From Thermoplasmata archaeon (GTDB lineage: Archaea; Thermoplasmatota; Thermoplasmata; RBG-16-68-12; JAGMCJ01), in NCBI GenBank assembly GCA_046761005.1, contig JBHIFI010000002.1, forward strand, positions 1,914 to 65,913: DNA of 64,000 bases. The letters are read 5' to 3'. Positions 14,456-62,430 of the stretch are shown one piece after another. The notes beneath the pieces are model-generated. The model did no database searches. It was given only the letters and a program-made list of their open reading frames with translations, and was not told where the DNA came from. A program made the position numbers and the translations under genes. The stretch's first letter is position 1. Every line of letters begins with the position of its first letter.

Positions 14456-14563
14456 CTCTTAAGTGCCGGATTCAGCGTAACGGGATGCAGAAGGAGATTG
14501 AATTGCTATACTAAGTAATTTCTCGGTCATGCGCGTTCCGCTGCCTTAGGAAGACACTGGGTA

Positions 14564-14648
14564 TGCGGAGGCGAGGATTCGAACCCCGGAACTCCTTCGA
14601 GACTAGACCCTGAATCTAGCGCCGTTGACCAGACTTGGCTACCTCCGC
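14564..14648 (-). tRNA. tRNA-Leu (anticodon CAG), 85 nt, no encoded CCA
   Basis: Cloverleaf derived by hand: acceptor GCGGAGG/CCTCCGC; D arm GCCA-AGTCTGGTCAA-CGGC; anticodon stem CTAGA/TCTAG with loop TTCAGGG; 14-nt variable arm (class II); T arm CGGGG-TTCGAAT-CCTCG; discriminator A. A TTTTTATT TATA-like box lies about 33 nt upstream. Confidence 0.85.
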
Positions 14649-14718
14649 ATCGAGCGTTTGCTCTAATACGGTGGCGAATAAAAAGCTTGTGAGCGGGAAT
14701 TGAAGAAAAGAAAGTGGT

Positions 14719-38529: not shown

Positions 38530-40806
38530 CTACTTCTCCCTTCTTCTGAAAGATGCTATCACTAGAACTGCCAGTAGGGTGACCGCAACTACTGCGAATG
38601 TGCCGATATCGGGAATAGGTTCGGTCGTGACTACTTCTTTTGGCACAACACCGCCCCAGCCCCTCACGGCGATGTTTGCGAATCCGCTTCCTTCCTGGTA
38701 TCCCTCCTTTTCTGCTGTCACCGTAACCCTGAAGTTCGTGTCGGTCGTGACGTTTCCGGTGAAGGAAGCCGACCATTCTCCATCAGATACCTCTGTGAGC
38801 GTTCCAAGTGTTGTGCCCGCCAAATCCACAGACATGTGAACTGTGCAATTGGCAACGGGAAGTAGGTCCTTATCCGTTATGACTACCGTGACTGTCGTTG
38901 TCTCACCAGAGTTGATTATTGGTGCCGTTCCAGTGACATCGACATCAAGGGGATTGACAGCTGGATGCACTGTTAGCTTGATACTGTCTGAGGCTCCTTC
39001 GTATGTCTGCAGGAATACTGTTGCCTCAATCTCAACATCTGTTGAATCCGAGACGTCTGGAGCAACGTATTTGGTTTCGAAAACGCCCAGTGAATCCGTC
39101 GTCCCACTCGGAGATTCGAAGATCCCGATATCAGCAGAGAGTTCGACATTCACCCCTTCCACACTTGATTCACTTTCGTCAAGCACAAGCACAGTCACAG
39201 TGACGTTGCCACCAGATTCCACGGAAGACTCGGATGTAGACAGCGTTTTTAGCACGAGCGGGCCCACTTGTATCTTGTGGAGGTTTGTGAAAGACCAGAA
39301 GTTGTTTATTCCTCCAGCCATGTCTACCCAGCCCCCATAGACCGTTCTGTTGTAGGCCTCGATTGCATCGTACGAAAGGACGGGAGCAAACAGAACTTTC
39401 TCTGAGATGAGCCCGAGGGCTTGATGAACGTATGTCTGCCTGGTTGCCATGTCTATTGCATCATCCGCCGCATCGAGTGCCGCCGTTATCTCAGGATCGC
39501 TGTAATCAGCAAGCATAGGAATTTCCCTAATGGTAGCGGGCTCGAGGGGAAGCCTTTCCATTGCTAGGTAGATGTCAAAGCCAGAGGGATCCGTGGCCGT
39601 TGTGTTTAGGGAGACGCTAAGCCCGAGCCTATTGAGGAGTCCACTGTAAGCGATTGCTATGTTGGATTTCGTTATGTCCTCTGCAATTGAGGGTCCTAAC
39701 ATTGTCATCTGAAGTGCACTGCCATCTGGTTTTTCTCTCCATCCATCTCCGTCCCTGTCACTATAGTTCAGCCTTTCAAGTTCGAGAAGGCTGGGCACAT
39801 AGTTGGTGTCAGTTTCTCCAGCAGGATTGAGGAATGACCCTGCATTATACTTCACTATGGATCGATTGTACCAGGGCTCATTTTGGGAACTCATCGGTGA
39901 GTGGACTATGATTGTATTTGGCTCCAAAGAGAGGAACAGCTCCTTGTTTATGGCCATGGCCAGAGCCTTCCTAAGTTCTGGGGTTGCCAACTCGTCGATT
40001 GGATTGAAACCAATGAAGAGGTATTCAAGTCCGTAAGTGTAGGAAATCGCGAGCTTTCCTACTTCTGCTTCAGTCATTATACTCTTGTTCTCATATCTGG
40101 CATCGGTCGTATCAGTAGGAGCGAGGGTCCAGCCTATGAAATCAACGGTCCCATTGATTAGCGCATTTGCCGCCGCATCGATGTCTTGATAGACCTTGAA
40201 TTCTATGGTGTCAAGATAGGGTCTGCCATGGAAGTACTCGCTGTAGGCACCAATGGTGACGCTTTCCGCCGTGGTGCCGATGAACTCGAAAGGACCGCAC
40301 CCCTCAGTGGGAGCGGCATCGTCGGACTTAACAAGGGGCTTCTGCAGGCCCTCCGTCATGAACTTCCCTCCGCCACCACCAGAGAAGTCAAAGCGAACCT
40401 CTGTCGGGGAGAGAATGCTCACGTCATAGCCGCCATAGTAAGTTCCGAAGGTGTATTCCACATCCGTCGCAGTAACTGGAGTGTCGTCATGCCAGAGGAC
40501 ATCGGTTCTCAAGACAACGGTCACCGTCTGATTCTCCTGATCCACTGACCAGCTTTCGGCAACCCAAGGCTTTACCTGAAGAGTGACCGGGTCGAGACGT
40601 CCAAGAGAGTCGTACAGAAGGTCAATCATGTGCAAACTAGCTTCATCTGATGCTGTCTTGGGATTCAAATCCAGTGCAGTATCCTTCACAGCAACCCGGA
40701 AGTCTCCTCCGTACAGTCCGGAGATCTCTTCTGGAGTGGCGGCAAAGGCAGAGACAGCGAAACTCAGGACGAAGAGCATCGTCAGTCCGAATGCTAGTGT
40801 TCTCAT
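38530..40806 (-). CDS. Extracellular solute-binding protein, family 5 (oligopeptide/dipeptide OppA/DppA-like), with two C-terminal Ig-like domains and a C-terminal TM anchor
   Basis: Signal peptide MRTLAFGLTMLFVLSFAVSAFA. SBP_bac_5 core (DFRVAVKDTALDLNP..., WHDDTPVTATDVEYTF). About 180 extra C-terminal residues of beta-rich repeats end in a TM plus RRREK. ATG overlaps the subtilase stop (ATGA). Confidence 0.8.
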   Translation of the reverse strand: MRTLAFGLTMLFVLSFAVSAFAATPEEISGLYGGDFRVAVKDTALDLNPKTASDEASLHMIDLLYDSLGRLDPVTLQVKPWVAESWSVDQENQTVTVVLRTDVLWHDDTPVTATDVEYTFGTYYGGYDVSILSPTEVRFDFSGGGGGKFMTEGLQKPLVKSDDAAPTEGCGPFEFIGTTAESVTIGAYSEYFHGRPYLDTIEFKVYQDIDAAANALINGTVDFIGWTLAPTDTTDARYENKSIMTEAEVGKLAISYTYGLEYLFIGFNPIDELATPELRKALAMAINKELFLSLEPNTIIVHSPMSSQNEPWYNRSIVKYNAGSFLNPAGETDTNYVPSLLELERLNYSDRDGDGWREKPDGSALQMTMLGPSIAEDITKSNIAIAYSGLLNRLGLSVSLNTTATDPSGFDIYLAMERLPLEPATIREIPMLADYSDPEITAALDAADDAIDMATRQTYVHQALGLISEKVLFAPVLSYDAIEAYNRTVYGGWVDMAGGINNFWSFTNLHKIQVGPLVLKTLSTSESSVESGGNVTVTVLVLDESESSVEGVNVELSADIGIFESPSGTTDSLGVFETKYVAPDVSDSTDVEIEATVFLQTYEGASDSIKLTVHPAVNPLDVDVTGTAPIINSGETTTVTVVITDKDLLPVANCTVHMSVDLAGTTLGTLTEVSDGEWSASFTGNVTTDTNFRVTVTAEKEGYQEGSGFANIAVRGWGGVVPKEVVTTEPIPDIGTFAVVAVTLLAVLVIASFRRREK

Positions 40807-43800
40807 GGCTCACCCTCCTCTGGTGGCGGGATTTCCTCAGTTGGCTCTTCAGGAGGGACCTCTTCGGCAGGAGGCTCTTCCGGAATCTCAATCTCCTCCA
40901 GTGCTTCCTCCTCTTCCGGAACCTCCTCAACGACCTCTTCTTCAACGGGTGGGATCTCTTCCTCCGGAACTTCCTCCTCAGGCACTGCAGGCTTCTTTCC
41001 CAACGTGAGGCCAATGACAAAGCCAATTACGAGGAGAACGATAGCAAGAGCAGTGAGTATCAATGTTGTCCATGTTTGCTTCGTAACCTTCATCTCCGGA
41101 GACCATGTAATGGATATAGCTTCCGAAGCAACATTTCCCGCCTCGTCCTTTGCTATGACTGTGATTTCGTTGGCGCCGTAGCTGAGGGTAACCTCTTTGC
41201 TGAAGGCTCCGTTCGACGGAACTACTGGAAGACCATTTACCGTCACGATTTCCACGTCGCCTGACACTGTTCCTGTAATGTTAATTCTTGAAACCAAAGC
41301 TTCCCCGGTTATCGGGTCAACGTTGTCCTCAGGAATAGAGACCGTCAGGGTAGGAATGACGGTGTCTCTAATCATGACTGTGTCATTACTGTAGAATGTA
41401 TGGCCTGCGGCGTCAACCGCCTCTATTTCAATAGTGTTCGTGCCTTCCTCCAGCGCTACGGTCGTTTCAAAGCTTCCGTCCTCGTTCACTGGAACAATCC
41501 TCCCAGCGATGGTCAACTCCACAGTCTCGTTGAACTTCCCAGAGATTATGATGGATTCTGCGTTTGTTGGCCGGGCCTGCGACTCAGATGTAATCAGGTA
41601 TTCCAGTACGGGCGGATTCGTGTCAACTGTTATGAGTCTTGTCACAACAGCGGTGTTGCCAGCTTGATCTTGGGCTTCAACGATAAGTGGATTGAGCCCC
41701 TCTGTCAATTGGTCAAACAGATAGGAGAAGGAACCGTCTGGGCTTACGGGCACCTCCTCAGTGCGAATTAGGACAGTCGCTTCAGGCTCGGTGGTTCCAG
41801 TTATCATAGTATAGTTTGTCGGAACGGTGATGTCCGTTGATGGGTAATCAATTTCAAGCAATGGCGCGGTCGTATCTACGTAGAAATGCCATGTCATTTC
41901 TTCTATATTGCCTGCGTAATCTCCAACCTGCGTCTTCACCGTATGCATTCCATCGGCAAGAGGTGCATTTGGAGCATAGCTGACTGTTCCTATTGCATAA
42001 CCACCGAGATCTGAATCGAAGGTTACTGTGACCAACGACATAGCAGTTATGTCAACACCATCCAACCACAAGCCTATCGTTGTTGAATCCATCTCTCCTT
42101 GGCTGTCAGAAAAGCCTGCGAGTATTGGAGGCATGTTATCCGACGTTACTGAACCATCTGGAGGAGTCATTTGGATAACCTCTGGAGGAGTGGTGTCGTA
42201 GTTCAGTTCGACGGGAACGAGAAGCGTCAACGAGAATGGCGTGTTCCCTGGTGATGCAAAGAAGGCTGCTTTAATCACTCCCTCAGGGGTATCCACTGGA
42301 AGGTCCCATTCAAGATTGAGGATTTCGCTGGAGTACCTCTGAATGATATCCGCAGTGTATGTAACTTGGAAGGGCGATGGTCCCACCTTAAGTTCTGTGA
42401 TTATCATGTCCGCAAGTGAGCCGACCCTCCAGATGTCGAAGCCAGCCATCTTGATAATGTATCTACCTGGCGTTGGAAGGACCAGGACTACAGTCTCATC
42501 TGCGTCTGCGTCGGCATCGTACTTGACAAATTCGTCTGCTTGAGCCTCATCATCGCCGTTCTCGTCGAGGAATATTCCGAGGTCCATATCTGGGCAGCAG
42601 TCGACATGTCCCATCAGATGGAACTCTATCGTTATGACTGAAGCATCGACGTCCCAAAGCATGGTGTTCTTTGAACTAGCAAGGTATTCCTGGAAAGTTA
42701 TTTCGCCGGACGTATAGGGCTCCGGGTCATCAAATTCAACTGGAATGTCGAGGAACTCGTGGGTTTCTGAACCAGCAACAGTGACGCCTATCGGCTTGCC
42801 AAAGAACTCGTGGAAAGGATCTGGATTGGGTAACCACGGTAGAGTCGTCGAAAAAATCATCTCGGTTGAGCCCTGCAACTGACTCGTAGCAACATCAATC
42901 GGATAGGGTGTCATGCTAAGAAGACCTGTTTCTCCGGAGATGACATCAGCGGCTTCCTCCCCTTCGACTGTGACTGTTTGCACGATTAGGACGTTAAGAC
43001 CTGCACTAACACTGAGACCCTTGAAGAGACCATTTCCGACTCCCGCCCAGTCTGGAGTCTTCTTGAAGTATCCTGGAGCTCCAACATCCGTTTCGACGGC
43101 CACGAACGGCCCATATCTGCTCTCATTCAGCTTAGAGAAGACAAGGTCGCCAAAAGCAGAAGAACCTTCCTCAGTCGCCTGAGCGAGATGCCGCATATCG
43201 CCATAGGTGTTGTTCCCATCCATACCTATGTCAATTGTGAACTTCATCCCCTCTCTGAATACGAATGTATCAGGAACGTCGAAGAAGTAGTACCTCAAGT
43301 CATACGCGCCTCCGTAACCTCTAAGAGCATTGTTATCGTACAGTGTATCGGAAATAGCGGTTCCTCCGAACTGGAAGTTTGTGGAACCCTCGTGAGCCAC
43401 ATTTATTACCACTGGAATGGTTGTGACATTGTTCTCGTTTGTTAGGCGGATTGCACCCTCATAGAGTCCTATGTCCGTACCTGGCAGCACAGTTGCAGTT
43501 GCTACGAAATCAAATGAGCCGCCTGCGGTTATGTCGATGGTCGGTCCAAGAGGTGTGACACCATCATCCTCATAAAGAGTAACCATCGGCCAGTTCTGGT
43601 GCTCGAAGAACTCAATTGTCACAGTGACGGGTCCGGGTACAGGGGCACCGGCGAGATGCCTCCACCAGATGATTAGTCCATCATGAGTTCTTGCTGCGGG
43701 ATCGTAGACTCTGACCTCGAAGGAGTTCTCACCCAAGTAGACTCCCATCCTGTTTCTTTCAAACCAAGCTCCTGTCACTCCGAAGGGCAGATCTGGATCG

Positions 43801-46800
43801 ACTAGCATCGCTCCTGTGGAGGTCCACCACAGGTCTATCTCACCTCCATAGCTCACCGCCCAGAACCAGTCATAACCAGGTGCGAAACCTACGTCTGTAA
43901 TTCCATAATCATATGTAGGAGTGACAGACGTTATGACTGAATCGGCTAGAATGTCCCAGATTGCCACATCCGTTGCATTGGCAACCGCCAGATACATGTT
44001 GGCCACATCAAAGTCTACACACATTGGATATTCCTGTAACATCGTATATGTTGGCGGGAGATAATCGTACTCAACCGTAACGTTTGCCCCCAACGCGAGT
44101 GTGCCAATGTAGAGCAATATGCCATTAGCGGTATACATGATATAGTCACCCATGCCACTCGCGATGTCAAGCTCGTAGACTGGCGAACCGTCCACCCAAA
44201 CCTGGTATGAGAATGGAACGACGCTCGTGTTCCCTAGGAAGAACACTGGGAAACCTGTGTAGTTGAAGGTGTCATTCCCCGTTGAAGGCGCCAGGGTCAT
44301 ATCCCAGACATTCACCGTTCCAGTGCCAGCCATGCTCCAGTCAGATCCCAATCCTACCGAAGCGAGCCACATGCTGTCAGAGCTGAACCTAAGGTCCATG
44401 ACTCCGTCAGCGTCAGCAGACCAATCGCCATCCTCATGGCCACTAAATCCTCCAATGTATGCACTTGTGGTCGGATCCCAGAGCATTATGTAGTTATCCC
44501 AGATACCGAAGGCGCCGCCGGAACCCGTTGCGATGACGGACCCATCTGGGCTCCATGCAATGGTGTTGACGACTTCAAGATGGCCGCACATCGTTGAAAG
44601 CACATTCCCTGCGAGGTCCATGACAAAGACGTCTCCCAAGAATCCGGGGAGGCAAAAGTCTCGCGGGAGTCCATTTAACCATCTGATGGCTGAGTTGAGA
44701 CTCGAGACATACGCTATCTGACTCTCATTCGCCGGATTGAACTCCACTCCATTGATCGAGTAGCCGAAGAGGAGGTCATCCGAGACTACGATTCGTGAGC
44801 GGGTAGGTACATCCCAGACTGCAACTGCGCCAGAATCGATGGGCCACCCACCCGAAGAGGCCGCTAGCATGCTGCAGTTGGATGAGAAGTCTATGTCATT
44901 GATCATCGTGCCTTCCAACCCTCTTAGCCTGTCAATCGGATAACCGGTTGCATTGTCCCATAGAATGATGATGCCATCCTCCGCACCGGTTGCGAAAATC
45001 GTGCCATCGGAGCAGAAATCCATGGCGGTAACGTTCGCGGAATGCCCAAAGAACCGTTCATTCATGTTGACATCGGTCCAGTCATGCGGTTCTACGTATA
45101 TCATCTGGTTGGTCAGCAGGTCGATATCGAAATGGGCGGTAATTCTGAGAAGGTCCGCATTGTTCCATCTTGTAGCATCCATGTTGGGTCCAAACTTCCT
45201 TCCTAAGAAGTCGTAGAATCCTGTCTCGTTGATGATAGTCCAGTTGTTACCCACGGGCTCTGGCGGTGCTTGAATGGAGGGCTCGAATGCATATTCTATG
45301 GTGCCCATCCTCTTCAGGTAGTCAGCAGAAACTCCAACGTTGGTCAAGTCTGCCGGTCCGCGATTCTCCACCGTAATCATTTCGGAATCAGACTCACCAA
45401 CCGTAAGGAAGTGGACGAAGGCCACATAGTCCTCTCCCCTGTAGTCGCCTGGATACCAGACCTCAGGATCGGCGAGAATACCTCCTCTGTTGCCAGCTAG
45501 ATCAGTGGCGCGCAGGGCATTACCGTACCCATGACCCTGAGTGAAGACATCATAGTTCATATCATCAGCACTTGACAGCAGAATCTTCTGAGCTTCAAAA
45601 GCATCCATGTAATATCCGTGCTCCTGCTCATATGCATCCTGCATGAGTGCGATTACGGCTGTTGCGTGCGGTGCAGCCATACTTGTGCCTGCATCTATGT
45701 CCCATGCAGCAGTCCCATCACGGAATGGGTTCAACGGATAAGCATCATAGACCCAACCACCAGCAAAGCAGATATCAGGACCTAGTTGACCAGTTGCGGA
45801 GGGTCCCCAAGAGGAGAGATAGGCTATCCCGCCGTAGTGGGGATTCGGTCCTCCATCGTATTCAAACTCTGGTTGCACCCTGTAGAAGAGGTCCCACGCC
45901 GCGCAAGCGCTGATGGTTCCTGGTGTGACCGAGTTTCCGGAGGTCCCATAGCCGGTACCCTCATTTCCAGCGGCTTTCACATGGATTGTCTTGCCCTCTG
46001 CGTACTGGGTTGTGACCCAATCTCCATATCTCTCGCCAAGAGTCCATCCTGTTTCAATCGGATTGGAACCGAAACTCCAACTCAATACGAGGCCTTCATC
46101 GCCGGTCCCTGGCACTCCATCATAACCCTCTACACCGAAGAGGAATCCGTGATACTGGGTGAATGCGCCATGCGAAGTCCCCCCGGGTATCGAAATAACC
46201 TTCGCATCAGGTGCCAATCCCATCAGCTTCGGTATACCACCGATAGGAGTCACGCCCTGACCCACGATACTCGTGGCTACAGCTGTTCCATGCGAGCCGT
46301 ATATCGCACCGCTGAAGGCAACCATATCACCGGCGCCCCAGTAGTAGTTGTCCACTCCCAGGCGTCCTGCGACGATATCCGAATAGGGTATTGGTACAAC
46401 ACCGTAGGAATAATTCACAGTGATGACATCGAAGCTTTCAAGTGGATATGTGAATGTGAAGTTCCCCGTCACCCTGTTCAGAATCCATGGGTGGTACTCG
46501 TAGGTCGCTCTGGCAATACCGCCAGGCGGCAGTCCATTGGACAAAGTAATGAGACCTTCTGTGTAGTCAACTGTGTAATCATCTCCCGTCACCAATTTGC
46601 CCTCAGCATCGTTCCAATCATTTCCTTCAATAAGAACTCCATCGTAACTGTAGTTAGCCCAGAAGGTATCTCCTGGCATATTGACTATGAGGGGGTCCGG
46701 ACTACTCAGAAGTTCAGCTCCAAGCACGACCTCGCCCGTTCCTGCATCAGCGGCGTAATTGCCGGGATCGATTTCTGTAATCACAGGTCCAAACCAGTCC

Positions 46801-49061
46801 TGCTCTTCATCGCCATCAAAGTCAGTAAGACGGACTCTGTAGAGAACAATATCAGTGAATCCCGTATGCGTGAGATTGAAACGGTCATCGGTGGCGGGAT
46901 CGACGACCACGAATTGTTTGGTCATGTCGGTTGGGTCTCTTCCAGTCTCATTTAGCACAGCGCCTGTTACAGTGAGCACAATGGTATCTTCAACGACATT
47001 CTTGTTCGCAAGTTGCAGTTCCTTAGTCAGTTCTGTGGCGTCGAGAACCAACTCATCGACGATGGGTATCGTATTCCATGGTATGGAATTCTTACTCACA
47101 TCCACAACGTCGCTTACGGTCACATTTCCGTTGGCTAGTTGACCCCAAGTCTCACCGCCGATTGCAGTGGTGCCTGTAATGTTGGTTTCATTGCCTAGAA
47201 CGAGCTGTTCGCCTGTGATATTTGTGGCATTACTTATGAAGTAGAGAAGACCGCCAGAAACGTCCGCGAGACCATCAAGGTCCAGGTCCTTCCATAAGTT
47301 CGGGCTAGCCTTCGTGGCAGCCATCTCATTTGTGAAATTGAAGTCATTGTCCAGGTCTACATATACTGTGTCGTATACTCCATTCCATGTCGAGTCAACC
47401 ACAAGCACCGCAGGCGCCATGAAGTATGCAGCTTTCAAGCTAGAATCCCAGTGAAGACCTACATGGTACTTTCCACTTACGCTCGCAATTCCTGTCACAT
47501 CGTAGTCGGTATCCTGCATGACAATGCTGACGAAATCGATGTAGATATCGGCAAGTGTTGGGTTGGAGGTCGCGTATCCAAGAATCACCAGTATGTAGTC
47601 GTTCTCTGTTTCTGGATTGTATATCGGTGAGAACACCTCAGGATTGGCTCCAGTGCTTGTTTCTTGGTAAGAAACCAGTTCCGACTGGTCTATGTCATTG
47701 TCTCCGTTTGCATCGTAGTAAAGTGCCAGGTCCAAGTCATCACCGGGCGTGAATGCGACCAAAATATTCATCTGGACTGTTCCGACAGGAACCGCGAATG
47801 GTAGTCTATATCCAGCGGTCAAGAACACATCTGGAAATCCAGCACTCAGATCATCATCATATATCTCCACGCCAAGATAGGAGGTCGGTGTCAGGAGAGG
47901 AGCATCCCTGTAGTAAGTGATTATGTCCCCCACGGCCTGGAGTTCTGTTGAAGTATCGACAAACATACCTGATAGTTTGCCCTCCTCGGAGAGATAGGTA
48001 TCAATCGCCGGCGGTTCGAACGAAATGGGCCATCCGGCGTACGGTGAGCTGTACTTGTAGGTGGCAGTTACAACATCATTGAGTACCAAGGGCGTCACAA
48101 AGGTTATCACGCCAGTCGCTGAATCAAAGGTGTAGTTAGCAGGGGGCATCAGATTGCCGTTCAGATAGAAGGAATAGTCAGTAACATCCATATGCATGAG
48201 GGTGGCATTCGTCTCACCACCAACAGCTTTGATGACAGTTATGTTATCTATCGTGGTATTATCGGGCTGGACGGCCCAAGTCCCCTGGAGGTCAGAATGT
48301 CCGAAATCTATTCCCTGATCGAGGACTACGACGACCTCTCCAGCTCCCGTGTACCCATTGGCCCAGGCTTGATCCGCCATATGAGTTACCACGGAGATCC
48401 AATCATTTGTTGTCGGAGGATCTTCTCCCATTGGCTGAGGTCCCTCCGAACCACGCATCGAACCCATCGGTTGGGATGGAGAGTCAATGACAACAGGATC
48501 CAGTTTTATGCCCTTTTCCCTTGCCTTTCTTTCTATCCATCGATTCTGGTCCAGTGGTTGGCGGTTGAGTGGAACGTCTCCACCAACAACCTCTTCTTGC
48601 ACCTCCAACATGTCAGGGGTGTAGACTTCCTGCCGTCCTATCAACAGAACCTCATCAATCGCGCTCAGTACTGGGAGAACGTAAGCGGGAACCTCAAGAA
48701 TTATCGGTGTTGGTATCGTCTTTATTGTCGCTTTCTCACCAATCAATCCCCGATATTCATACTTCTCGAGAGCCCTAGCTACTGCGGAGACATCCGAGAC
48801 TATGAGGACCACGCCTACCATCTCTTTGCCTCCGCTCTTCGCCAAATCTAGCAGAGCAGGATCGATTTTCCCTAGTGCGAGCTCCTCCGGCTGAGGAAAT
48901 GAAGGTTCCTCCGCTAAGAGAAATTCTTCACCTTGCCCGACGGGCTTCTCGTCGAACGCCTCACCACCTGAAGATGTTGCGAGTGTGGTGCTGACGAAAA
49001 GCGATAGGGCAAGCAGCCCTACAACGATTCCACTAATCCACTTGACACTTTTTTTGGACAT
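40803..49061 (-). CDS. Giant (2752 aa) secreted/membrane-anchored S8 subtilisin-like serine protease with WD40 beta-propeller repeats, multiple Ig-like/beta-sandwich domains, a C-terminal TM helix and an acidic (PEE)n tail
   Basis: Signal peptide MSKKSVKWISGIVVGLLALSLFVSTTLATSS. Catalytic motifs in D-H-S order: VVVLDQGIDFGHSDL, HGTAVATSIVGQG, GTSMAAPHATAVIALM. WD40-like units (FGHSANVTAMDFCSDGTIFATGAEDGIIILWD; CGHLEVVNTIAWSPDGSVIATGS). C-terminus ...LILTALAIVLLVIGFVIGLTLGKK followed by PEEEVPEEEIPP.... Promoter TATA at 49118-49125 and a GGAGG Shine-Dalgarno. Confidence 0.85.
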   Translation of the reverse strand: MSKKSVKWISGIVVGLLALSLFVSTTLATSSGGEAFDEKPVGQGEEFLLAEEPSFPQPEELALGKIDPALLDLAKSGGKEMVGVVLIVSDVSAVARALEKYEYRGLIGEKATIKTIPTPIILEVPAYVLPVLSAIDEVLLIGRQEVYTPDMLEVQEEVVGGDVPLNRQPLDQNRWIERKAREKGIKLDPVVIDSPSQPMGSMRGSEGPQPMGEDPPTTNDWISVVTHMADQAWANGYTGAGEVVVVLDQGIDFGHSDLQGTWAVQPDNTTIDNITVIKAVGGETNATLMHMDVTDYSFYLNGNLMPPANYTFDSATGVITFVTPLVLNDVVTATYKYSSPYAGWPISFEPPAIDTYLSEEGKLSGMFVDTSTELQAVGDIITYYRDAPLLTPTSYLGVEIYDDDLSAGFPDVFLTAGYRLPFAVPVGTVQMNILVAFTPGDDLDLALYYDANGDNDIDQSELVSYQETSTGANPEVFSPIYNPETENDYILVILGYATSNPTLADIYIDFVSIVMQDTDYDVTGIASVSGKYHVGLHWDSSLKAAYFMAPAVLVVDSTWNGVYDTVYVDLDNDFNFTNEMAATKASPNLWKDLDLDGLADVSGGLLYFISNATNITGEQLVLGNETNITGTTAIGGETWGQLANGNVTVSDVVDVSKNSIPWNTIPIVDELVLDATELTKELQLANKNVVEDTIVLTVTGAVLNETGRDPTDMTKQFVVVDPATDDRFNLTHTGFTDIVLYRVRLTDFDGDEEQDWFGPVITEIDPGNYAADAGTGEVVLGAELLSSPDPLIVNMPGDTFWANYSYDGVLIEGNDWNDAEGKLVTGDDYTVDYTEGLITLSNGLPPGGIARATYEYHPWILNRVTGNFTFTYPLESFDVITVNYSYGVVPIPYSDIVAGRLGVDNYYWGAGDMVAFSGAIYGSHGTAVATSIVGQGVTPIGGIPKLMGLAPDAKVISIPGGTSHGAFTQYHGFLFGVEGYDGVPGTGDEGLVLSWSFGSNPIETGWTLGERYGDWVTTQYAEGKTIHVKAAGNEGTGYGTSGNSVTPGTISACAAWDLFYRVQPEFEYDGGPNPHYGGIAYLSSWGPSATGQLGPDICFAGGWVYDAYPLNPFRDGTAAWDIDAGTSMAAPHATAVIALMQDAYEQEHGYYMDAFEAQKILLSSADDMNYDVFTQGHGYGNALRATDLAGNRGGILADPEVWYPGDYRGEDYVAFVHFLTVGESDSEMITVENRGPADLTNVGVSADYLKRMGTIEYAFEPSIQAPPEPVGNNWTIINETGFYDFLGRKFGPNMDATRWNNADLLRITAHFDIDLLTNQMIYVEPHDWTDVNMNERFFGHSANVTAMDFCSDGTIFATGAEDGIIILWDNATGYPIDRLRGLEGTMINDIDFSSNCSMLAASSGGWPIDSGAVAVWDVPTRSRIVVSDDLLFGYSINGVEFNPANESQIAYVSSLNSAIRWLNGLPRDFCLPGFLGDVFVMDLAGNVLSTMCGHLEVVNTIAWSPDGSVIATGSGGAFGIWDNYIMLWDPTTSAYIGGFSGHEDGDWSADADGVMDLRFSSDSMWLASVGLGSDWSMAGTGTVNVWDMTLAPSTGNDTFNYTGFPVFFLGNTSVVPFSYQVWVDGSPVYELDIASGMGDYIMYTANGILLYIGTLALGANVTVEYDYLPPTYTMLQEYPMCVDFDVANMYLAVANATDVAIWDILADSVITSVTPTYDYGITDVGFAPGYDWFWAVSYGGEIDLWWTSTGAMLVDPDLPFGVTGAWFERNRMGVYLGENSFEVRVYDPAARTHDGLIIWWRHLAGAPVPGPVTVTIEFFEHQNWPMVTLYEDDGVTPLGPTIDITAGGSFDFVATATVLPGTDIGLYEGAIRLTNENNVTTIPVVINVAHEGSTNFQFGGTAISDTLYDNNALRGYGGAYDLRYYFFDVPDTFVFREGMKFTIDIGMDGNNTYGDMRHLAQATEEGSSAFGDLVFSKLNESRYGPFVAVETDVGAPGYFKKTPDWAGVGNGLFKGLSVSAGLNVLIVQTVTVEGEEAADVISGETGLLSMTPYPIDVATSQLQGSTEMIFSTTLPWLPNPDPFHEFFGKPIGVTVAGSETHEFLDIPVEFDDPEPYTSGEITFQEYLASSKNTMLWDVDASVITIEFHLMGHVDCCPDMDLGIFLDENGDDEAQADEFVKYDADADADETVVLVLPTPGRYIIKMAGFDIWRVGSLADMIITELKVGPSPFQVTYTADIIQRYSSEILNLEWDLPVDTPEGVIKAAFFASPGNTPFSLTLLVPVELNYDTTPPEVIQMTPPDGSVTSDNMPPILAGFSDSQGEMDSTTIGLWLDGVDITAMSLVTVTFDSDLGGYAIGTVSYAPNAPLADGMHTVKTQVGDYAGNIEEMTWHFYVDTTAPLLEIDYPSTDITVPTNYTMITGTTEPEATVLIRTEEVPVSPDGSFSYLFDQLTEGLNPLIVEAQDQAGNTAVVTRLITVDTNPPVLEYLITSESQARPTNAESIIISGKFNETVELTIAGRIVPVNEDGSFETTVALEEGTNTIEIEAVDAAGHTFYSNDTVMIRDTVIPTLTVSIPEDNVDPITGEALVSRINITGTVSGDVEIVTVNGLPVVPSNGAFSKEVTLSYGANEITVIAKDEAGNVASEAISITWSPEMKVTKQTWTTLILTALAIVLLVIGFVIGLTLGKKPAVPEEEVPEEEIPPVEEEVVEEVPEEEEALEEIEIPEEPPAEEVPPEEPTEEIPPPEEGEP

Positions 49062-56722: not shown

Positions 56723-57346
56723 ATGGACTCCGTGAGGAGGGGCGGTTCCTGTATTTTCGTAATGCCTGTGATAAGGGGCCTCGTCAGTGAGGCGAGGGAG
56801 GTAGATCGGGCGGTTCAGGAGACGAAACCGGATGCGCTTGGTATTTGCGTATCAAAAGAGGAACTCAAGACGTTGGACGCCCTTGGAGGTCAAAGGACAG
56901 AGCCCTCAAGCTCTCACGAGGAGGCCTATATGAGGGGACTGGAAAGATTCGGAGAGGTGAGGAAGCCACCGCCATGCTACTCTGAGGGGTTATCAATGGC
57001 AAAACGTCTGAGAATACCGTGCATCGCCTTGGACATGGATGAGAGTCTATATAGTGAGGCATACTGCACTTTCGTTTCTGTCGTTGATGTGATGAGGCAA
57101 ACGAGGGATTCTCGTGTAGTTCTGGAGAAGGAATTCCAGGCTCAGTCGCCCGAGGAATTCGTTTTGGAACTCGATGCGTACGTCAATAGGCACAAGGGTT
57201 TTGAGAGGCTGGAGCGGGAAAGGGAGAGATATATAGCTCTGAGACTGTCCAAAATGCAAGGCAAATGGTCAAGAATTCTTGCCCTTGTTGAAGTAGAAAG
57301 GGCAAATGGTGTCATCGAGAACTTGGAACGACTACTCCCTCTCTAG
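56723..57346 (+). CDS. Hypothetical protein, possibly TraB/PrgY-like; co-operonic with the upstream regulator
   Basis: 207 aa; starts 5 nt after the previous stop. A weak N-terminal resemblance to TraB-family proteins (....EVDRAVQETKPDALGICVSKEELKTL) is the only basis for the product call. Confidence 0.4.
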   Translation: MDSVRRGGSCIFVMPVIRGLVSEAREVDRAVQETKPDALGICVSKEELKTLDALGGQRTEPSSSHEEAYMRGLERFGEVRKPPPCYSEGLSMAKRLRIPCIALDMDESLYSEAYCTFVSVVDVMRQTRDSRVVLEKEFQAQSPEEFVLELDAYVNRHKGFERLERERERYIALRLSKMQGKWSRILALVEVERANGVIENLERLLPL

Positions 57347-60300
57347 CTCTATTGTCACTCCTCTGTCTACGTCACCTATGTCCAGATCGTAGATTATCGT
57401 ATCGCGACTGTCTACAATGTCCGATTTCCAGCCTGGCTGCTCATTCTTGTACCAGACGGTCTTTCCTGTGGATGTCCCTATTACGACGTCATCCCAATAG
57501 TCGCCATCAACATCGCCGGCCCTCAGCGCGTTGACATCACCATCAGTGTCCGCCACCTTGGTGCTGTTCCATGCCGTGCCGGGAAGTTCGTTCTCAAACC
57601 AGTATACCTTGTCGTCATCCGTACCTGCGACAACATCGAGGTCATCATCACCATCTATATAGGCAAGATCTACGGCGAGGACGGAACCAGTTGCTTCGAG
57701 AGTATCCCCTGAGGGGAGTTCGCCCGTGCCATCATTGTATCTCATATGGACATTCCCGCTTGAAGTGGCTAATGCTACGTCCAGGTCATCATCATCATCA
57801 ACGTCACCGATGGCGATATCGTTCACAGTGCTAACAGCGTTCCAAGCATAGTGTTCGGCGACCACTACATATCTTCTGATGAACATGTGGTCGATATAGA
57901 CAGTATCATTGTTCATGTTGCCGTTGGTGCTGTCCGTGTCTATGACCCTAACGTATATGTTACCGCTAATAGTCGTGGGAAGGCTAGCACCCGTGTATGT
58001 GTTCGGGTCTGAGGTGTAAGCGACAGTCACCATATCCGACCACGGGCCGCTCGAACTCGTCGAATACTGGAACAGAAAGTCGTCTTGCTCGCTGTTATCT
58101 GTGTGGTAGGCCTCAACAAAGAACTTGTATGCATCTCCGCCAGCAGCGATAGATTCAATTCTCCAGATGTGGTCGAGAGTGCTTGTCGTTCCGTTTTCCG
58201 TGGAGGACTCCACAAACATATAATCGATCGAGAGTGTAGTCGCCATTCCATCGGTATTACCATCATTCTTGCTGCTGTCGCTATCTCTTATCCAAATGTA
58301 GAGCTGTCCTCCATTGAATCCGGCTGTCTTCAGGTCAAACACATCCGTTCCCTTTGTCGTCCTGCTGATTGCCCACACGAAGGATGGATTTGAATCCGTT
58401 GACCATCCCACCTCGAAGGGCTCAGTGCCTGTGCTTATGTAGCTTGTAACTGAGAGCTCAATACTGTCTCCGGACGAAACATTTCCGAAGTTGTACATGT
58501 GCCCACCGGCGCCCCCAGATTCGTTCCTCAAACACCACCATTTGTTTACACCTGCTTCAGCGCACAAGTCTTCAGTCAGCGTTTCGTATGTCCCATCATT
58601 CGAATGGGTATCTTGATAATCTCCGACCACGATGTCATATACAGCCGCCTGCTCTCCATCCGCCAGATACGTGCTAACGTCATATGCAGTTCCATTCACT
58701 TCCTCTATAGATTCGTAGGTATCATCAGTGTACCAGGTATCTGTGTACTCTCCGGAAACAGTTCCGTTTCCGGATATGTCCTGATCTGCAAGATAATCGG
58801 TTGTTGTGACTGTGCCAAACATACCATCCGTGTTCGTGTATATCCAGACCTCAGTTCCTGTGGCCACAACGAGGTCATCATCATCATCGCCATCCATGTC
58901 AGCAAGCCTTATCGCCTTTATTTCTGAGCCAGTATCATCTATAGGCATGGGTGTCCAGGCATTGTCATTTGCGTACCACCACAGGTCCCCGTCCTGTGTT
59001 CCAGCAACTATGTCCAGCAGGCTATCCTTATCGACATAACCTACGTCTACGGCTGTTACAGCCACGCCTAGGTCGTCCACTTCTCTTCGCTGCCAGTAAT
59101 GACCCTCTCCGCCCTGATTTCTATACACGAATATCTTTCCGACTTCGATTCCCTCAACCAGGTCGAGGTCAGTATCATCATCAATGTCTCCATAGACTAT
59201 GGATAAGAAACCTCCTGCTCCCCATGGGGGGTCTTGGTGACCTGGGAACGGAACATAGGATTCCACCTCATACTGCTCCCATCTGAATACGAGGTTCTCG
59301 AAAAATAGCGAGTAGATTTTCAAATCGAATACCGGGTGCGAATAGTCTTCGATGGCGGTGGCTATGTCCAAGTACCATCGTGGTCCCCGGATGGTGACGA
59401 GCCTGTTGAGGGATACTTTGTATTCCTCATTGATATCCTTGAGATAGAGAATCCTCAGGGTGTAGGCGTTCTCACCAAAAAGCCAGGGATCAAAGTTTGG
59501 CTTTGACAAATCTATGCTGAATTTGTAACTGACGGAGTTGTTTACGCTTGCCTCACTGATCGGGGGATTGCCTGGCTTTGCCCAAATCTGAATACCGCCA
59601 CCGAAATCCTGAATCTTGATATTTCCAAATTCGAACGTAGCATCAGTGTCTTGGACAATAACCTTCACATACATCGTGTCTGTGTAGTTGAAGATGTCCG
59701 AGGGATGCTCATGATCAGGATCGAGGAAGGTCAGAACCTGGGGATAGTTCGTAACGTTTCCTTCCTCATCTGTGACGGTAATGAAGTCTTGAACCTCAAA
59801 CAGGTTGTCAGGTGGAGGATAGTAGCTTGATCTCAGTTTTATCCTGAGAGAATAGTGACCATAGTCTAGCAACCCATCAGTATAGCCATGGCCCGCGCTA
59901 GACGTGTTCCATCTATATTCCCATATGTAGAACTTGCCCACGTAGTCGACGAGCTCAAAGGCCTCGGTTGAAGAGGGAATCGAAGTTCGGTTCATTGGCC
60001 CGCCGCCGTAGACTATGGGTTGTGGGGAGAGACCAGACTCAGCCTTGAAGAGCCAGAACTTATTGTCCAGATCGCAGTCGGGAAGAAAGTGGCTCGCGAT
60101 GACGATAACGATTCTCTCACCTTTCACGAATGTTCTTGTTGCGTTGCCCTCCCATCTTCTCTTGTCCCACTCCGTCTCATTGAATATCTGATAGTGTTGC
60201 AGGCCGCTTCCAGGAAGGAGCTCAGGACCGAATCTCGGAGTGGTTATGTTTTCTGGATATTCATAGTAATAGTGGTAGGCGGCGCCAAGTTCCTCAATCT

Positions 60301-61144
60301 TGAGGATGAGCCTCGCGCTCGTATTGTGACCAGCATCATCCTCGGCGGTCATAATCACAAGAGCGCCATCAAAGGTTTCATCGGCAACGAATTCTGGATA
60401 GACGGCACTCCAAATGCCATCGTCTGCTTCCTCGTCACCCATTGAACCGTTGTCGTACATCTTGAAGCAGCCGTAGTCATCATAGAGAATCGTTATATTT
60501 ACATAGACGTCATTGTCGCTGTCGAAATCCCCATCCTTATCCTCAATTTTGGCGAATATTCCGAAGGACTCATTCCCACGCAAATCCTCTTTGGCGATAG
60601 TCTCGAGATTACCATCGAACCATTTCTGGACGAAAAGTGGCGGATACTCGCCTCCTGCTCCCAAAATAGTGGAACTCCAGATCACCTCACCTCTTATGGA
60701 TTCAATGACACCAACTTCGACTACATCATCCGCCTCGATTGTGTGATTCACAATACTCCAAACCTCATCTATCGTCCAGTTCTCATCATCTCTTAATCCG
60801 TAGGGATCTCCAGAATTGGGTCCATACTCAATGGTCCCCTGAGTTTTGAGAAGCTCAAAGTCCTCGTTCACTCTTATGAACACTTTCGTCCTAAAGCCAT
60901 ATAGTTTCTCTCCACCTTGGTGTGTGATGTTGATAATAGCTCCGTCCCAGACACCTTGTTCATAGATTGGAGTGAGGGCTCCCTCCATCTGTAGTTTCAC
61001 TGAAGCCTCTGGTGTTGGAATAGAGTACACCCAGATAAATATGGCCGAGAAGATGACCACTGTAATGAGCAGTATCAGTATCGTTCCCACAACTTCCGAC
61101 ACACCTTTACCATCGCGGGAGAAACGTTTCTTATAGAGTGACAT
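57332..61144 (-). CDS. Giant (1270 aa) surface protein with an archaeal class III (type IV pilin-like) signal peptide and FG-GAP/integrin-alpha-like beta-propeller repeats
   Basis: N-terminus MSLYKKRFSRDGKG|VSEVVGTILILLITVVIFSAIFIWVY matches the archaeal pilin N-terminal (Pilin_N) consensus [KR]G-VSxVIG.ILL.ITVV. Repeated Ca-binding-like DxDxDG..D..V units follow (DVDGDGDDDLVV, DIDDDTDLDLVEG, DMDGDDDDDLVVATG, DVDDDDDLDVAL, DGDDDLDVVAG, DVDGDYWDDVVIG). Many N-glyc sequons. TATA at 61182-61190 and a GGAGGA Shine-Dalgarno. Confidence 0.8.
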   Translation of the reverse strand: MSLYKKRFSRDGKGVSEVVGTILILLITVVIFSAIFIWVYSIPTPEASVKLQMEGALTPIYEQGVWDGAIINITHQGGEKLYGFRTKVFIRVNEDFELLKTQGTIEYGPNSGDPYGLRDDENWTIDEVWSIVNHTIEADDVVEVGVIESIRGEVIWSSTILGAGGEYPPLFVQKWFDGNLETIAKEDLRGNESFGIFAKIEDKDGDFDSDNDVYVNITILYDDYGCFKMYDNGSMGDEEADDGIWSAVYPEFVADETFDGALVIMTAEDDAGHNTSARLILKIEELGAAYHYYYEYPENITTPRFGPELLPGSGLQHYQIFNETEWDKRRWEGNATRTFVKGERIVIVIASHFLPDCDLDNKFWLFKAESGLSPQPIVYGGGPMNRTSIPSSTEAFELVDYVGKFYIWEYRWNTSSAGHGYTDGLLDYGHYSLRIKLRSSYYPPPDNLFEVQDFITVTDEEGNVTNYPQVLTFLDPDHEHPSDIFNYTDTMYVKVIVQDTDATFEFGNIKIQDFGGGIQIWAKPGNPPISEASVNNSVSYKFSIDLSKPNFDPWLFGENAYTLRILYLKDINEEYKVSLNRLVTIRGPRWYLDIATAIEDYSHPVFDLKIYSLFFENLVFRWEQYEVESYVPFPGHQDPPWGAGGFLSIVYGDIDDDTDLDLVEGIEVGKIFVYRNQGGEGHYWQRREVDDLGVAVTAVDVGYVDKDSLLDIVAGTQDGDLWWYANDNAWTPMPIDDTGSEIKAIRLADMDGDDDDDLVVATGTEVWIYTNTDGMFGTVTTTDYLADQDISGNGTVSGEYTDTWYTDDTYESIEEVNGTAYDVSTYLADGEQAAVYDIVVGDYQDTHSNDGTYETLTEDLCAEAGVNKWWCLRNESGGAGGHMYNFGNVSSGDSIELSVTSYISTGTEPFEVGWSTDSNPSFVWAISRTTKGTDVFDLKTAGFNGGQLYIWIRDSDSSKNDGNTDGMATTLSIDYMFVESSTENGTTSTLDHIWRIESIAAGGDAYKFFVEAYHTDNSEQDDFLFQYSTSSSGPWSDMVTVAYTSDPNTYTGASLPTTISGNIYVRVIDTDSTNGNMNNDTVYIDHMFIRRYVVVAEHYAWNAVSTVNDIAIGDVDDDDDLDVALATSSGNVHMRYNDGTGELPSGDTLEATGSVLAVDLAYIDGDDDLDVVAGTDDDKVYWFENELPGTAWNSTKVADTDGDVNALRAGDVDGDYWDDVVIGTSTGKTVWYKNEQPGWKSDIVDSRDTIIYDLDIGDVDRGVTIELERE

Positions 61145-61181
61145 CCTTCGTCCTCCTGTGCTACAGAAAGAAGCATCTGAG

Positions 61182-61190
61182 TTTATATAA
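61182..61190 (-). promoter_or_regulatory. TATA box (TTATATAAAC on the minus strand) for the pilin-like giant gene
   Basis: Lies about 40-46 nt upstream of ATG 61144. Shine-Dalgarno GGAGGA is the reverse complement of 61151-61156. Confidence 0.5.
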
Positions 61191-61278
61191 GTCTTATGTG
61201 GTAGTTACCATGTTTTGCACCATCCAATAGTCGGATGCGCACCGTCATGATTAAATAACGACTGCTCGATGATATCGC

Positions 61279-62430
61279 ATGGCAAAACTCACAGTCAACG
61301 ACAGGATACTGCTTCATCTTTTTGATTACAGGAAGATTCGGAATGACTTTCCCCCAGACATCACTCAGGCTGGGATGGCCTCTGCGATAGGTATTCAGAG
61401 AAGCCATATTCCTCGGTCTGTGAAGAAGCTTGAGGAAGAGGAGGCCATTGAGGAGAAAAGGGAGCGGATTCACGGTGCGGGAAGGCGGCTCAAGATGTAT
61501 TTTCTCACTGAGAGAGGGTATAGACGAGCAGCAATGATAAGAAGGAGGGTCGGTCGAAAGAGGATTCGAGTCCAATCTAGTGGAGGGGAGACAGAGCTTC
61601 CCATCTCGGAAGCCTCAAGACTTTACGAAATGAGCTATTCAGAGATCCTCGCAAATCTTGACCGTGAGGACGTGCTTGATATTCAAGGAATTCTTCGAAA
61701 GACACTGCTGGAGAAGAAGGAATTCGTAAACAGACAGACCGAGCTTCTTCGTGTCCGCGAGTGGCTCGCCAGCAAGAAGCCAGTTCTCGCCCTCTATGGT
61801 CATGTCGGCTACGGAAAGACCTCGCTCGTAAGGGGATTCCTCGAAATGACTGAAGGTTGGAGAGTTTTCTGGAAGGATCTTACTGAGGATGATGAAACAA
61901 CGGATGTTCTTAGACCGCTTGTGCGCTTCGTAGCAAAGAAGCGTGGTGACAGGGCCAGAAAGTGGCTCGAGGAAGGAAACATAGATAGTACGATATCCTC
62001 GCTCGGGAAGGATCTGAACGATTCTTGTTCGTTACTCATATTCGATAACTATAACATCGTTGGCGAGGACTTAGTCGACGCTTTTAACACACTTACTCAT
62101 CTGCTTTCTGGAATACAGAGGGCGAAAATGATAGTGATAGCGCAAGAGGCAACTCCCGCCTACTGTCGCTTCTATGATAGGAAAATGGTTGAGCGCGGAA
62201 TGGTCGACGAAATCCATCTCAAGGGTCTGAGCCAGGAGGATTCCAAGAGGCTATTGGGGAACCCTCGAATAGAGGACGAAGCGATGCGGCGTATATATCT
62301 TTTGACGAAGGGAAATCCACTATTCCTGACCCTCATACGGGAAGGCAAGGCGGACGAACTCAAGAAGAGATCTAGATTCACAACCCCAGAAATACAACTC
62401 CTTATGTTCTCAAAGACGGTGGAAGGCTAG
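61279..62430 (+). CDS. Winged-HTH DNA-binding domain fused to an AAA/archaeal-ATPase (PF01637-like) domain - putative transcriptional regulator
   Basis: N-terminus DRILLHLFDY...TQAGMASAIGIQRSHIPRSVKKLEEEEAIEE (wHTH). Then P-loop ALYGHVGYGKTSL and Walker B LLIFDNYN. Confidence 0.65.
   Translation: MAKLTVNDRILLHLFDYRKIRNDFPPDITQAGMASAIGIQRSHIPRSVKKLEEEEAIEEKRERIHGAGRRLKMYFLTERGYRRAAMIRRRVGRKRIRVQSSGGETELPISEASRLYEMSYSEILANLDREDVLDIQGILRKTLLEKKEFVNRQTELLRVREWLASKKPVLALYGHVGYGKTSLVRGFLEMTEGWRVFWKDLTEDDETTDVLRPLVRFVAKKRGDRARKWLEEGNIDSTISSLGKDLNDSCSLLIFDNYNIVGEDLVDAFNTLTHLLSGIQRAKMIVIAQEATPAYCRFYDRKMVERGMVDEIHLKGLSQEDSKRLLGNPRIEDEAMRRIYLLTKGNPLFLTLIREGKADELKKRSRFTTPEIQLLMFSKTVEG

Follow-up and report, generated by a model that had tools for sequence, protein, structure and literature searches.

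The locus described here raises the question of what a very large protein with a pilin-like N-terminus does for an uncultured archaeon, and of how its gene is controlled. The gene lies at 57332..61144 on the reverse strand (stop codon 57332-57334) of a 64-kb stretch of a Thermoplasmata archaeon chromosome (contig JBHIFI010000002.1, positions 1,914 to 65,913; hereafter the window). It encodes a modular pilin-like FG-GAP protein of 1270 amino acids (aa) and 140 kDa, with matches to Pilin_N and FG-GAP_3 above the Pfam cut-offs. A gap of 134 bp separates this open reading frame (ORF) from a divergent ORF of 383 aa (61279..62430, forward strand) for a protein that joins a probable MarR-like winged helix-turn-helix (wHTH) domain to a P-loop nucleoside triphosphatase (NTPase). 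We consider it probable that the 1270-aa protein is a modular type IV pilin adhesin (in the sense of Raynaud et al. 2021). It would be exported as a prepilin, held by its helix in the membrane or in a filament, and carry an FG-GAP head, under control of the NTPase acting through a short semi-palindromic DNA element. The protein class itself is expected: an identical protein is already annotated at NCBI as 'MAG: type IV pilin [Thermoplasmata archaeon]' (MAG, metagenome-assembled genome), and architectures combining Pilin_N and FG-GAP are common in metagenomes. New here are the domain map, a module of promoter and N-terminal cassette common to pilins of pilus loci, the lineage-wide pairing with a wHTH-NTPase, and a conserved operator-like element. 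No description of the FG-GAP pilin family or of its wHTH-NTPase regulator was found in the literature searched.

The N-terminus of the protein has the features of an archaeal prepilin. Pilin_N (PF07790) scores 40.9 bits (cut-off 25.2), with residues 13-92 covering positions 1-75 of the 78 in the model. The sequence also has a class III signal (MSLYKKRFSRDGK(-2)G(-1)|VSEVVG..., followed by a hydrophobic stretch of ~30 residues), the only N-terminus of this kind among the window proteins. According to a published rule (PMC4371748), archaeal prepilins are cleaved in front of the H-domain and have G, A or S at -1 next to a charged residue at -2; K13-G14|V15 of the window protein follows this rule. 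Cleavage by a prepilin peptidase is predicted after G14, releasing the leader peptide of residues 1-14 (MSLYKKRFSRDGKG; 61103..61144, reverse strand; K at -2, G at -1). Across the family, G14, S16 and E17 show little or no variation; G14 in particular is invariant in a 15-sequence N-terminal alignment and present in at least 90% of a 46-sequence alignment. The leader is followed by the pilin alpha-1 helix, or H-domain, at residues 15-45 (VSEVVGTILILLITVVIFSAIFIWVYSIPTP; 61010..61102, reverse strand); a helix is predicted at 13-41. It is the only transmembrane-like segment, as residues 12-45 are the only hydrophobic segment of the protein, and a scan for hydrophobic segments identified no C-terminal anchor. 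Residues 15-45 are 76% identical among distant homologs, compared with 18-34% for the other domains. Such a level of constraint is far beyond what membrane anchoring alone would require, and is seen in pilin H-domains.

The pilin fold continues beyond the helix in a beta-sandwich at residues 46-165 (60650..61009, reverse strand), which carries an ITHxGG motif. A profile built on residues 1-175 matches the solved haloarchaeal pilins 8fj5 (E 9e-6), 8gi2 and 9myg in register. For the Haloferax volcanii pilin 8fj5, 'desG|VSEVvGtiLiLaiTV' of the profile pairs with 'DDSA|VSPVIGVILMVAITV' and 'itHeGg' with 'ITHESG', so that the cleavage site of 8fj5 (DDSA|VSPVIG) is aligned with G14 of the window protein. 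The structural match comprises 120 residues aligned to a chain of 133, and the long helix and beta-sandwich of the pilin fold are both present. Family profiles were needed for the sequence matches to PDB entries: single-sequence phmmer against PDB returned nothing for the whole protein or for its first 166 aa.

The rest of the protein was mapped with two AlphaFold2 models built from the 46-sequence family alignment (residues 1-640 with a mean predicted local distance difference test score, pLDDT, of 79.7; residues 600-1270 with 88.4). A second beta-sandwich, D2, occupies residues 166-285 (60290..60649, reverse strand; modelled strands at 170-280), marginally matches NCBIfam choice_anch_X (25.1 against a cut-off of 25), and ends the part of the protein that is shared with other pilins. 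It is followed by a flexible linker at residues 286-310 (60215..60289, reverse strand; pLDDT <50 at 286-304), where conservation is lowest and alignment gaps are most numerous. Beyond the linker are two generic, family-specific beta-sandwiches, D3 (311-460) and D4 (461-590), together at 59375..60214 (reverse strand), and then a propeller that matches FG-GAP_3 in six stretches (39.2 bits, cut-off 26.9) and has the seven-bladed fold. Blades 1-3 span residues ~591-777 (58814..59374, reverse strand), with acidic loops starting at 653, 703 and 749. Blades 4-7 span residues ~1096-1270 (57335..57859, reverse strand), with loops starting at 1114, 1162 and 1211; at profile level they match those blades of integrin alpha-6 and alpha-IIb that bear calcium loops. 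A generic two-domain beta-sandwich/jelly-roll insert of ~320 aa (residues ~778-1095; 57860..58813, reverse strand; strands at 179-496 in the model of the C-half) interrupts the propeller between blades 3 and 4 and is less conserved than any other folded region. In one longer relative (P0015, L021:6001-10824, 1607 aa, 340 aa longer), DUF2341 and Laminin_G_3 domains lie between the FG-GAP repeats, at the place that matches the insert.

With the family profile, the best PDB match is an FG-GAP esterase (8w20, 5e-10), and CRTAC1, ITFG2 and integrin alpha-6 (3e-7) are also matched. A Foldseek comparison of the C-half model with PDB found only eukaryotic multi-propeller proteins with TM-scores of ~0.2, and thus nothing beyond 'propeller'. 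All six acidic loops have the form Dx[DN]x[DN]xxxD. In the loops at 749, 1114 and 1211, the ligand positions are kept in 41-46 of the 46 sequences, with D1211, D1215 and D1219 invariant or nearly so; the loop at 653 is less strictly conserved. The protein has 22 N-X-S/T sequons (8.5 +/- 2.8 in shuffled sequences) and a mature isoelectric point (pI) of 4.05. These results bear out a first-pass annotation of this DNA, which had proposed an archaeal pilin N-terminus on the 1270-aa ORF, an FG-GAP propeller, beta-sandwich segments and abundant N-glycosylation sequons; the insert that splits the propeller is an addition to it. Its description of repeated acidic loops also holds, but the loops do not follow the strict DxDxDG..D pattern it gave. 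Its suggestion that the protein is an adhesin rather than a major pilin gains support from the arrangement of pilin cassette, linker and head of ~1000 aa, and from the finding that the cassette also heads shorter pilins of pilus loci.

This cassette, the first ~292 aa, links the protein to pili. Full-length relatives form 57 clusters (1180-1600 aa, identity down to 25%), all from Thermoplasmata/Thermoplasmatota MAGs, and at least seven loci were confirmed by a scan of genome contigs. By scanning genomes and searching with residues 1-285, we identified shorter pilins (448-620 aa) whose likeness to the window protein is limited to the first ~292 aa and which continue with a G/S-rich linker, at the same position as in the window protein, and unrelated C-terminal parts. 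By tblastn and blastp, similarity to pilins of type IV pilus (T4P) loci likewise stops at residue ~283-292. An exhaustive search of 1.84 billion representatives (E <= 1e-10) recovered the cassette in 163 clusters of proteins of 96-3280 aa, always at the N-terminus; the heads sampled are FG-GAP, CARDB with Big_5, or without Pfam match. The window protein is thus modular in the sense used for pilins: it has a pilin module, a linker and an independent module, and in paralogs the same cassette bears unrelated heads.

In two related loci (L009 and L010), a short cassette pilin is encoded in a pilus locus with two T2SSF genes, one T2SSE ATPase and a 1532-aa CARDB/zinc-ribbon protein. One of these loci (L010) comes from the same MAG (EA_11) as an FG-GAP member of the family (L007). 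The two cassettes are 65% identical, well above the identity between FG-GAP members of different lineages, and the two promoters are homologous. Promoter, signal and pilin module move as a single cassette. In three independent assemblies (L014:1768-8201, L015 and L016), a 448-aa cassette pilin and the CARDB/zinc-ribbon protein of the pilus locus (here 1531 aa) replace the wHTH-NTPase and the FG-GAP gene, which suggests recombination via the shared cassette. We rejected the possibility that this 448-aa pilin is a deletion derivative of an FG-GAP member, given that its last 150 aa resemble neither that family nor the pilin of L010. The platform of the L009 and L010 pilus loci is split in two T2SSF genes (252 and 306 aa; L009:58-3537, L010:66-3534) that precede the ATPase. 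This pair resembles the split platform CdiPFa/CdiPFb reported for Cuniculiplasma (PMC12448462). No prepilin peptidase gene was found in the pilus loci L009, L010 and L015; the ORF between the ATPase and CARDB genes encodes a transporter of the major facilitator superfamily.

The intergenic region carries promoter elements for both genes. For the pilin-like gene we identified a Shine-Dalgarno-like GGAGG (61152..61156, reverse strand) that ends 7 nt upstream of the ATG, within an AGGAGG that is invariant in five aligned relatives, and a TATA box, TTATATA (61184..61190, reverse strand), ~43 nt upstream of the ATG. The box CTTATATA is invariant in the intergenic alignment, where a block ATGGTAACTACCAC lies 7 nt upstream of it, and a TATA-like box occurs at the matching relative place in distant loci. 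The NTPase gene has a TATA-like box, TTAAATAA (61251..61258, forward strand), ~25 nt upstream of its ATG, a distance which suggests that its transcript is leaderless or near-leaderless. Four close relatives keep the block GTTATTTAA(T/C)CATGACGGT, and L018 has a similar one, CTTATTTAATCGTGACGGT.

Located 7 nt upstream of the TATA box of the pilin-like gene is the semi-palindrome TGGTAACTACCAC (TGGTA-N2-TACCA; 61198..61210, reverse strand), a candidate site for the wHTH-NTPase. The exact 13-mer occurs once in the window. TGGTA-N2-TACCA keeps its position with respect to the TATA box in L004, L005, L007, L008 and L012, and in weaker form in L006, in loci whose proteins are only 25-30% identical. 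It is also present upstream of the pilus-locus pilins in L009, L010 and L014-16. Outside those promoters, a degenerate form of the pattern occurs twice in 369.5 kb. The element co-varies with the NTPase gene: it is intact where the NTPase is adjacent, partly diverged in L006 (TGGTAATTATC, the most diverged copy), whose NTPase is itself degenerate, and absent or reduced to a half-site in L003, L020 and L021, which have no NTPase gene. In L022 the half-sites are kept and the central AC is changed to GT, its reverse complement, as expected for a symmetric dimer site. A site just upstream of the transcription factor B recognition element and TATA box is the typical position of an activator in archaeal promoters. 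The position of the element accordingly suggests an activator site, by analogy. Its location between the two TATA boxes (61184-61190 and 61251-61258) of the divergent genes could also allow autoregulation.

The product of the divergent gene, for which NCBI holds an identical entry ('MAG: ATP-binding protein', Thermoplasmata archaeon), has a Walker A motif (GHVGYGKTS) and a Walker B motif (LLIFD). It passes the cut-off for ATPase_2 (PF01637) narrowly (34.5 bits, cut-off 33.2) and is a P-loop protein of ATPase_2/AAA_16 type. The classical AAA+ model (PF00004) did not match it, and AAA_22 and AAA_16 matched only below their cut-offs. The winged helix scores slightly under the Pfam cut-offs for HTH_Crp_2 (26.0 against 27) and MarR (21.4 against 24.6), and reaches E 0.01 against SlyA structures. 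Precomputed HTH_Crp_2 matches exist for its relatives, some of which are named MarR- or PadR-family regulators at JGI. The NTPase family comprises 34 clusters, is lineage-restricted, and has several members on the same contigs as FG-GAP members. The divergent NTPase/FG-GAP pair was found in 12 distinct loci (the window, L001/2, L004-L008, L012, L017-L019 and L022), down to 25% protein identity; the NTPase homologs in the divergent-neighbour loci are 30-69% identical to the window protein. The recurring gene order is CobA, wHTH-NTPase (reverse), FG-GAP pilin (forward), a gene for a 207-aa protein (reverse), PDDEXK_19-HTH_3 (reverse) and EndA (forward).

In L006, the NTPase gene (L006:8720-9604, reverse strand) is paired with the FG-GAP member that diverges most, and its product no longer has the Walker A lysine (SNRGYGSS) or ~90 residues at the C-terminus. 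A GAF protein (sometimes GAF-PAS, ~315-340 aa) is encoded by a conserved upstream neighbour in L003, L020, L021, L004 and L005; where the NTPase is missing (L003, L020 and L021), the GAF gene abuts the pilin gene as its immediate co-directional upstream neighbour. The first-pass annotation had described the divergent pair, its 134-bp gap and its TATA boxes, and we found all three, with the boxes conserved in relatives. Its assignment of the partner as a wHTH-AAA ATPase needs adjustment: a P-loop NTPase is present, but not one of the PF00004 family, and the wHTH matches fall slightly short of the cut-offs. Its proposal of a dedicated regulator, which was to be checked by co-occurrence in relatives, agrees with the pairing in 12 loci, the lineage restriction of the NTPase and the co-variation of the element. 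Its statement that the window has no pilus assembly ATPase or platform gene also holds, as neither T2SSE nor T2SSF, nor Peptidase_A24, is encoded within the 64 kb.

From these observations we infer the following mechanism. A PibD-type prepilin peptidase would remove the 14-residue leader after G14, and the conserved alpha-1 helix would then anchor the protein in the membrane or, alternatively, be inserted in a filament by T4P machinery encoded elsewhere. If in a filament, the protein would be a low-abundance or tip subunit because of its size. The cassette of ~292 aa (helix, pilin beta-sandwich and second beta-sandwich) passes, via the flexible linker, into an acidic head of ~1000 aa, probably glycosylated. 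This head consists of two beta-sandwiches and the FG-GAP propeller, whose seven blades include three to four calcium-type loops under strong conservation, where calcium may bind, and are interrupted by the variable two-domain insert. The head is probably the adhesion part and would bind a ligand. The gene would be transcribed from the promoter defined by the TATA box and the Shine-Dalgarno-like sequence. On the comparative evidence, the NTPase most likely binds the semi-palindrome as a dimer. In this way it would regulate the adhesin gene and perhaps its own; in relatives, it would also act on the pilus-locus pilin genes, which bear the same element.

Several observations weigh against this reading, and they are best considered with the alternatives. 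The pilin-like gene is single-copy and vertically inherited in a housekeeping neighbourhood, which would fit a constitutive envelope protein equally well. In such a case the pilin-type helix would be a mere N-terminal anchor, and the protein would be part of a glycoprotein coat or a substitute for a surface layer (S-layer), not a pilus subunit. We regard this as possible but unlikely. It would account for the fixed place of the gene between housekeeping genes down to 25% identity, for the sequon enrichment and acidic pI, and for the fact that pilus genes were not found nearby: neither in the window nor at distances of up to 10 kb from any FG-GAP member did we identify a gene for PilB, PilC or a prepilin peptidase, and the link to pilus loci is seen in related MAGs and not in the clade of the window itself. 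There are precedents as well, since Thermoplasmatales are reported to have an unordered protein layer of ~20 nm in place of an S-layer, with no S-layer genes found (PMC12448462), and membrane-associated pilins of H. volcanii can promote adhesion without pili (PMC4371748). A plain anchor, however, needs neither 76% identity over 31 residues nor an invariant G-V-S-E junction. The same cassette and promoter also head pilins inside pilus loci. Ordinary anchored surface proteins of the window (the 2752-aa and 758-aa proteins described below) use Sec-type signals and C-terminal anchors, and the 1270-aa protein has neither. In addition, a regulated promoter with a dedicated regulator would be unexpected for a bulk coat protein. 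The regulatory part of our proposal has weak points of its own. The motif is present at pilus-locus pilins without an adjacent NTPase, so another factor could bind it. The loci without NTPase are three in number and belong to one subclade, so that the correlation between motif and NTPase may reflect a single evolutionary event. Adjacency of the NTPase gene is also weaker evidence given that the overall gene order is conserved.

The residue at -2 is S, N or Y in many relatives, not the charged residue reported to be critical for archaeal prepilin peptidases. Together with the lack of any PDB pilin by single-sequence phmmer, this could point to an uncleaved type II signal-anchor protein, with a Pilin_N match due to composition and a shared hydrophobic helix. 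We think this improbable. The Pilin_N match spans 75 of the 78 model positions and takes in the beta domain as well as the helix, the alignment of the profile with solved pilins reaches the ITHxGG strand, and the structural match extends over the whole pilin; moreover, K-G|V of the window protein fits the published rule (PMC4371748). Also to be weighed is that no ligand can be named for the head, which might instead capture or convert a substrate for nutrient uptake, behind a class III signal, as part of a bindosome-like or enzyme-display protein comparable to the sugar-binding proteins of Sulfolobus. Class III signals do occur on surface proteins unrelated to pili, e.g., bindosome subunits (PMC4371748, PMC4858521), and the best PDB profile match is to an FG-GAP 'secreted esterase' (8w20). 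That match is limited to the FG-GAP repeats, however; Pfam and NCBIfam gave no solute-binding or catalytic domain, and there are no adjacent transporter genes, so we consider such a function improbable as well. The modular pilin adhesin is therefore the reading that we prefer.

A broader version of the proposal is also conceivable, if doubtful. In this S-layer-poor lineage, the ~292-aa cassette and its promoter could be a general export and anchor module for giant surface proteins (up to ~3300 aa; FG-GAP, CARDB or unknown heads), displayed on the cell or on pili, and the lineage-specific wHTH-NTPase could be a master switch acting through TGGTA-N2-TACCA. On this view the FG-GAP member, with its fixed place at a housekeeping locus, would belong to the core envelope rather than being an accessory adhesin.

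On its other side, the pilin-like gene shares 15 bp with the 3' end of a convergent gene for a 207-aa protein (56723..57346, forward strand). A Pfam scan and a PDB search gave no match for this protein. It is 36-42% identical in distant loci, where its position is constant, and is thus better conserved than the pilin-like protein; it is retained in L014-16 despite replacement of the FG-GAP gene there. A functional tie between the two genes is unproven. The rest of the window is a chromosomal housekeeping stretch that encodes PolB, thermosome, DnaK/DnaJ/GrpE, glutamine synthetase, primase, a transcription factor TFB and a tRNA-splicing endonuclease, among others; the PolD small subunit, EndA and TFB are among the housekeeping genes around the pilin-like gene.

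Two other large surface proteins are encoded in the window. One, of 2752 aa (40803..49061, reverse strand), has a Sec-type signal, a Peptidase_S8 (subtilase) domain, a WD40 propeller, Big_13/Big_6 and three Glucodextran_B domains, and ends in a transmembrane segment with an acidic Pro/Glu-rich tail. A large gene is kept at this position, after PseudoU_synth_1, in L001 and L002, with a faint Peptidase_S8 match in L002. Directly downstream is the gene for a 758-aa protein (38530..40806, reverse strand) with a Sec signal, an SBP_bac_5 solute-binding domain, Big_1/Invasin_D3 Ig-like domains and a C-terminal transmembrane anchor. A 1201-aa protein (1587..5192, forward strand) has a tetratricopeptide repeat, a double zinc ribbon and transmembrane-like segments. 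A correspondence with the CARDB/zinc-ribbon protein encoded in the pilus loci was considered and rejected, as tblastn detected no similarity between the two. The sole mobile-element signature is a DDE_Tnp_1 transposase ORF (294 aa, 12103..12987, reverse strand), located ~1.6 kb from a tRNA-Leu gene (14563-14649).

How uncultured Thermoplasmata, often devoid of an S-layer, attach to particles or partners is poorly understood. The locus offers a defined, testable unit: a 140-kDa propeller head borne on a pilin, a 13-bp candidate operator and a putative cognate wHTH-NTPase. A close comparison for the N-terminal part of the protein is with haloarchaeal pilins (H. volcanii PilA1-6, 8fj5; Natrinema PilA2, 8gi2), which have Pilin_N, the ITHxGG strand and the helix and beta-sandwich in common with the window protein. 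The junctions are also similar (A|VSPVIGVILMVAITV in haloarchaea, G|VSEVVGTILILLITV here), but the window protein has E at +3, where the haloarchaeal pilins have P. Pilin paralogs of H. volcanii have a conserved H-domain in common and are encoded away from pilB/pilC (PMC4371748); likewise, the cassette paralogs share a conserved H-domain and the genes stand apart from pilB/pilC. The haloarchaeal proteins, however, are major subunits of 130-165 aa, compared with 1270 aa and six more folded domains plus propeller in the window protein.

Large adhesin-like pilins have been proposed for archaeal T4P, and large DUF2341 proteins, considered PilY1-like, are encoded in euryarchaeal T4P loci (Makarova et al., 2016; PMC4858521). 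Unlike these euryarchaeal proteins, the window protein has no DUF2341 match and its gene is outside a pilus locus. As in the PilY1/PilC tip adhesins, a beta-propeller head with a calcium-type site would be displayed by T4P, and the relative P0015 carries DUF2341 in its insert. PilY1 differs in that it is not itself a pilin, docks on minor pilins, and has a propeller of another family (IPR008707). The propeller itself is of the integrin alpha type (integrin alpha, CRTAC1, ITFG2, PVL lectin), with seven blades, FG-GAP repeats and Dx[DN]x[DN]xxxD loops, and its inter-blade insertion recalls the I-domain of integrin alpha. In contrast to integrin alpha, however, the inserted part follows blade 3 and is made up of two beta-sandwiches in place of a vWA domain, a beta-subunit partner is absent, and the anchor is an archaeal pilin.

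The proposed regulator combines parts that are each familiar. It resembles MarR/SlyA regulators in its predicted winged helix (SlyA at E 0.01) and archaeal ATPase_2/STAND-like NTPases in its Walker A and B motifs and its ATPase_2 match. It differs from both in the fusion of these modules, its lineage restriction and its fixed divergent pairing with the pilin-like gene, none of which was found described in the literature searched, and it is not a classical AAA+ protein. A close parallel for the 1270-aa protein is provided by the bacterial modular pilins, e.g., PilB (vWA) and PilC (lectin) of Streptococcus sanguinis and CofB/TcpB, in which a metal-binding adhesive effector has a predicted tip location (PMC8179133). 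The likeness lies in a pilin carrier joined by a short linker to a bulky effector, and in one cassette that serves many heads. The bacterial proteins have an N-methylation motif in place of the archaeal Pilin_N; the head of the window protein is far larger, and its putative effector is an FG-GAP propeller. The locus does not overturn current views, but it extends to archaea the idea of the modular pilin, which has so far been documented for bacteria.

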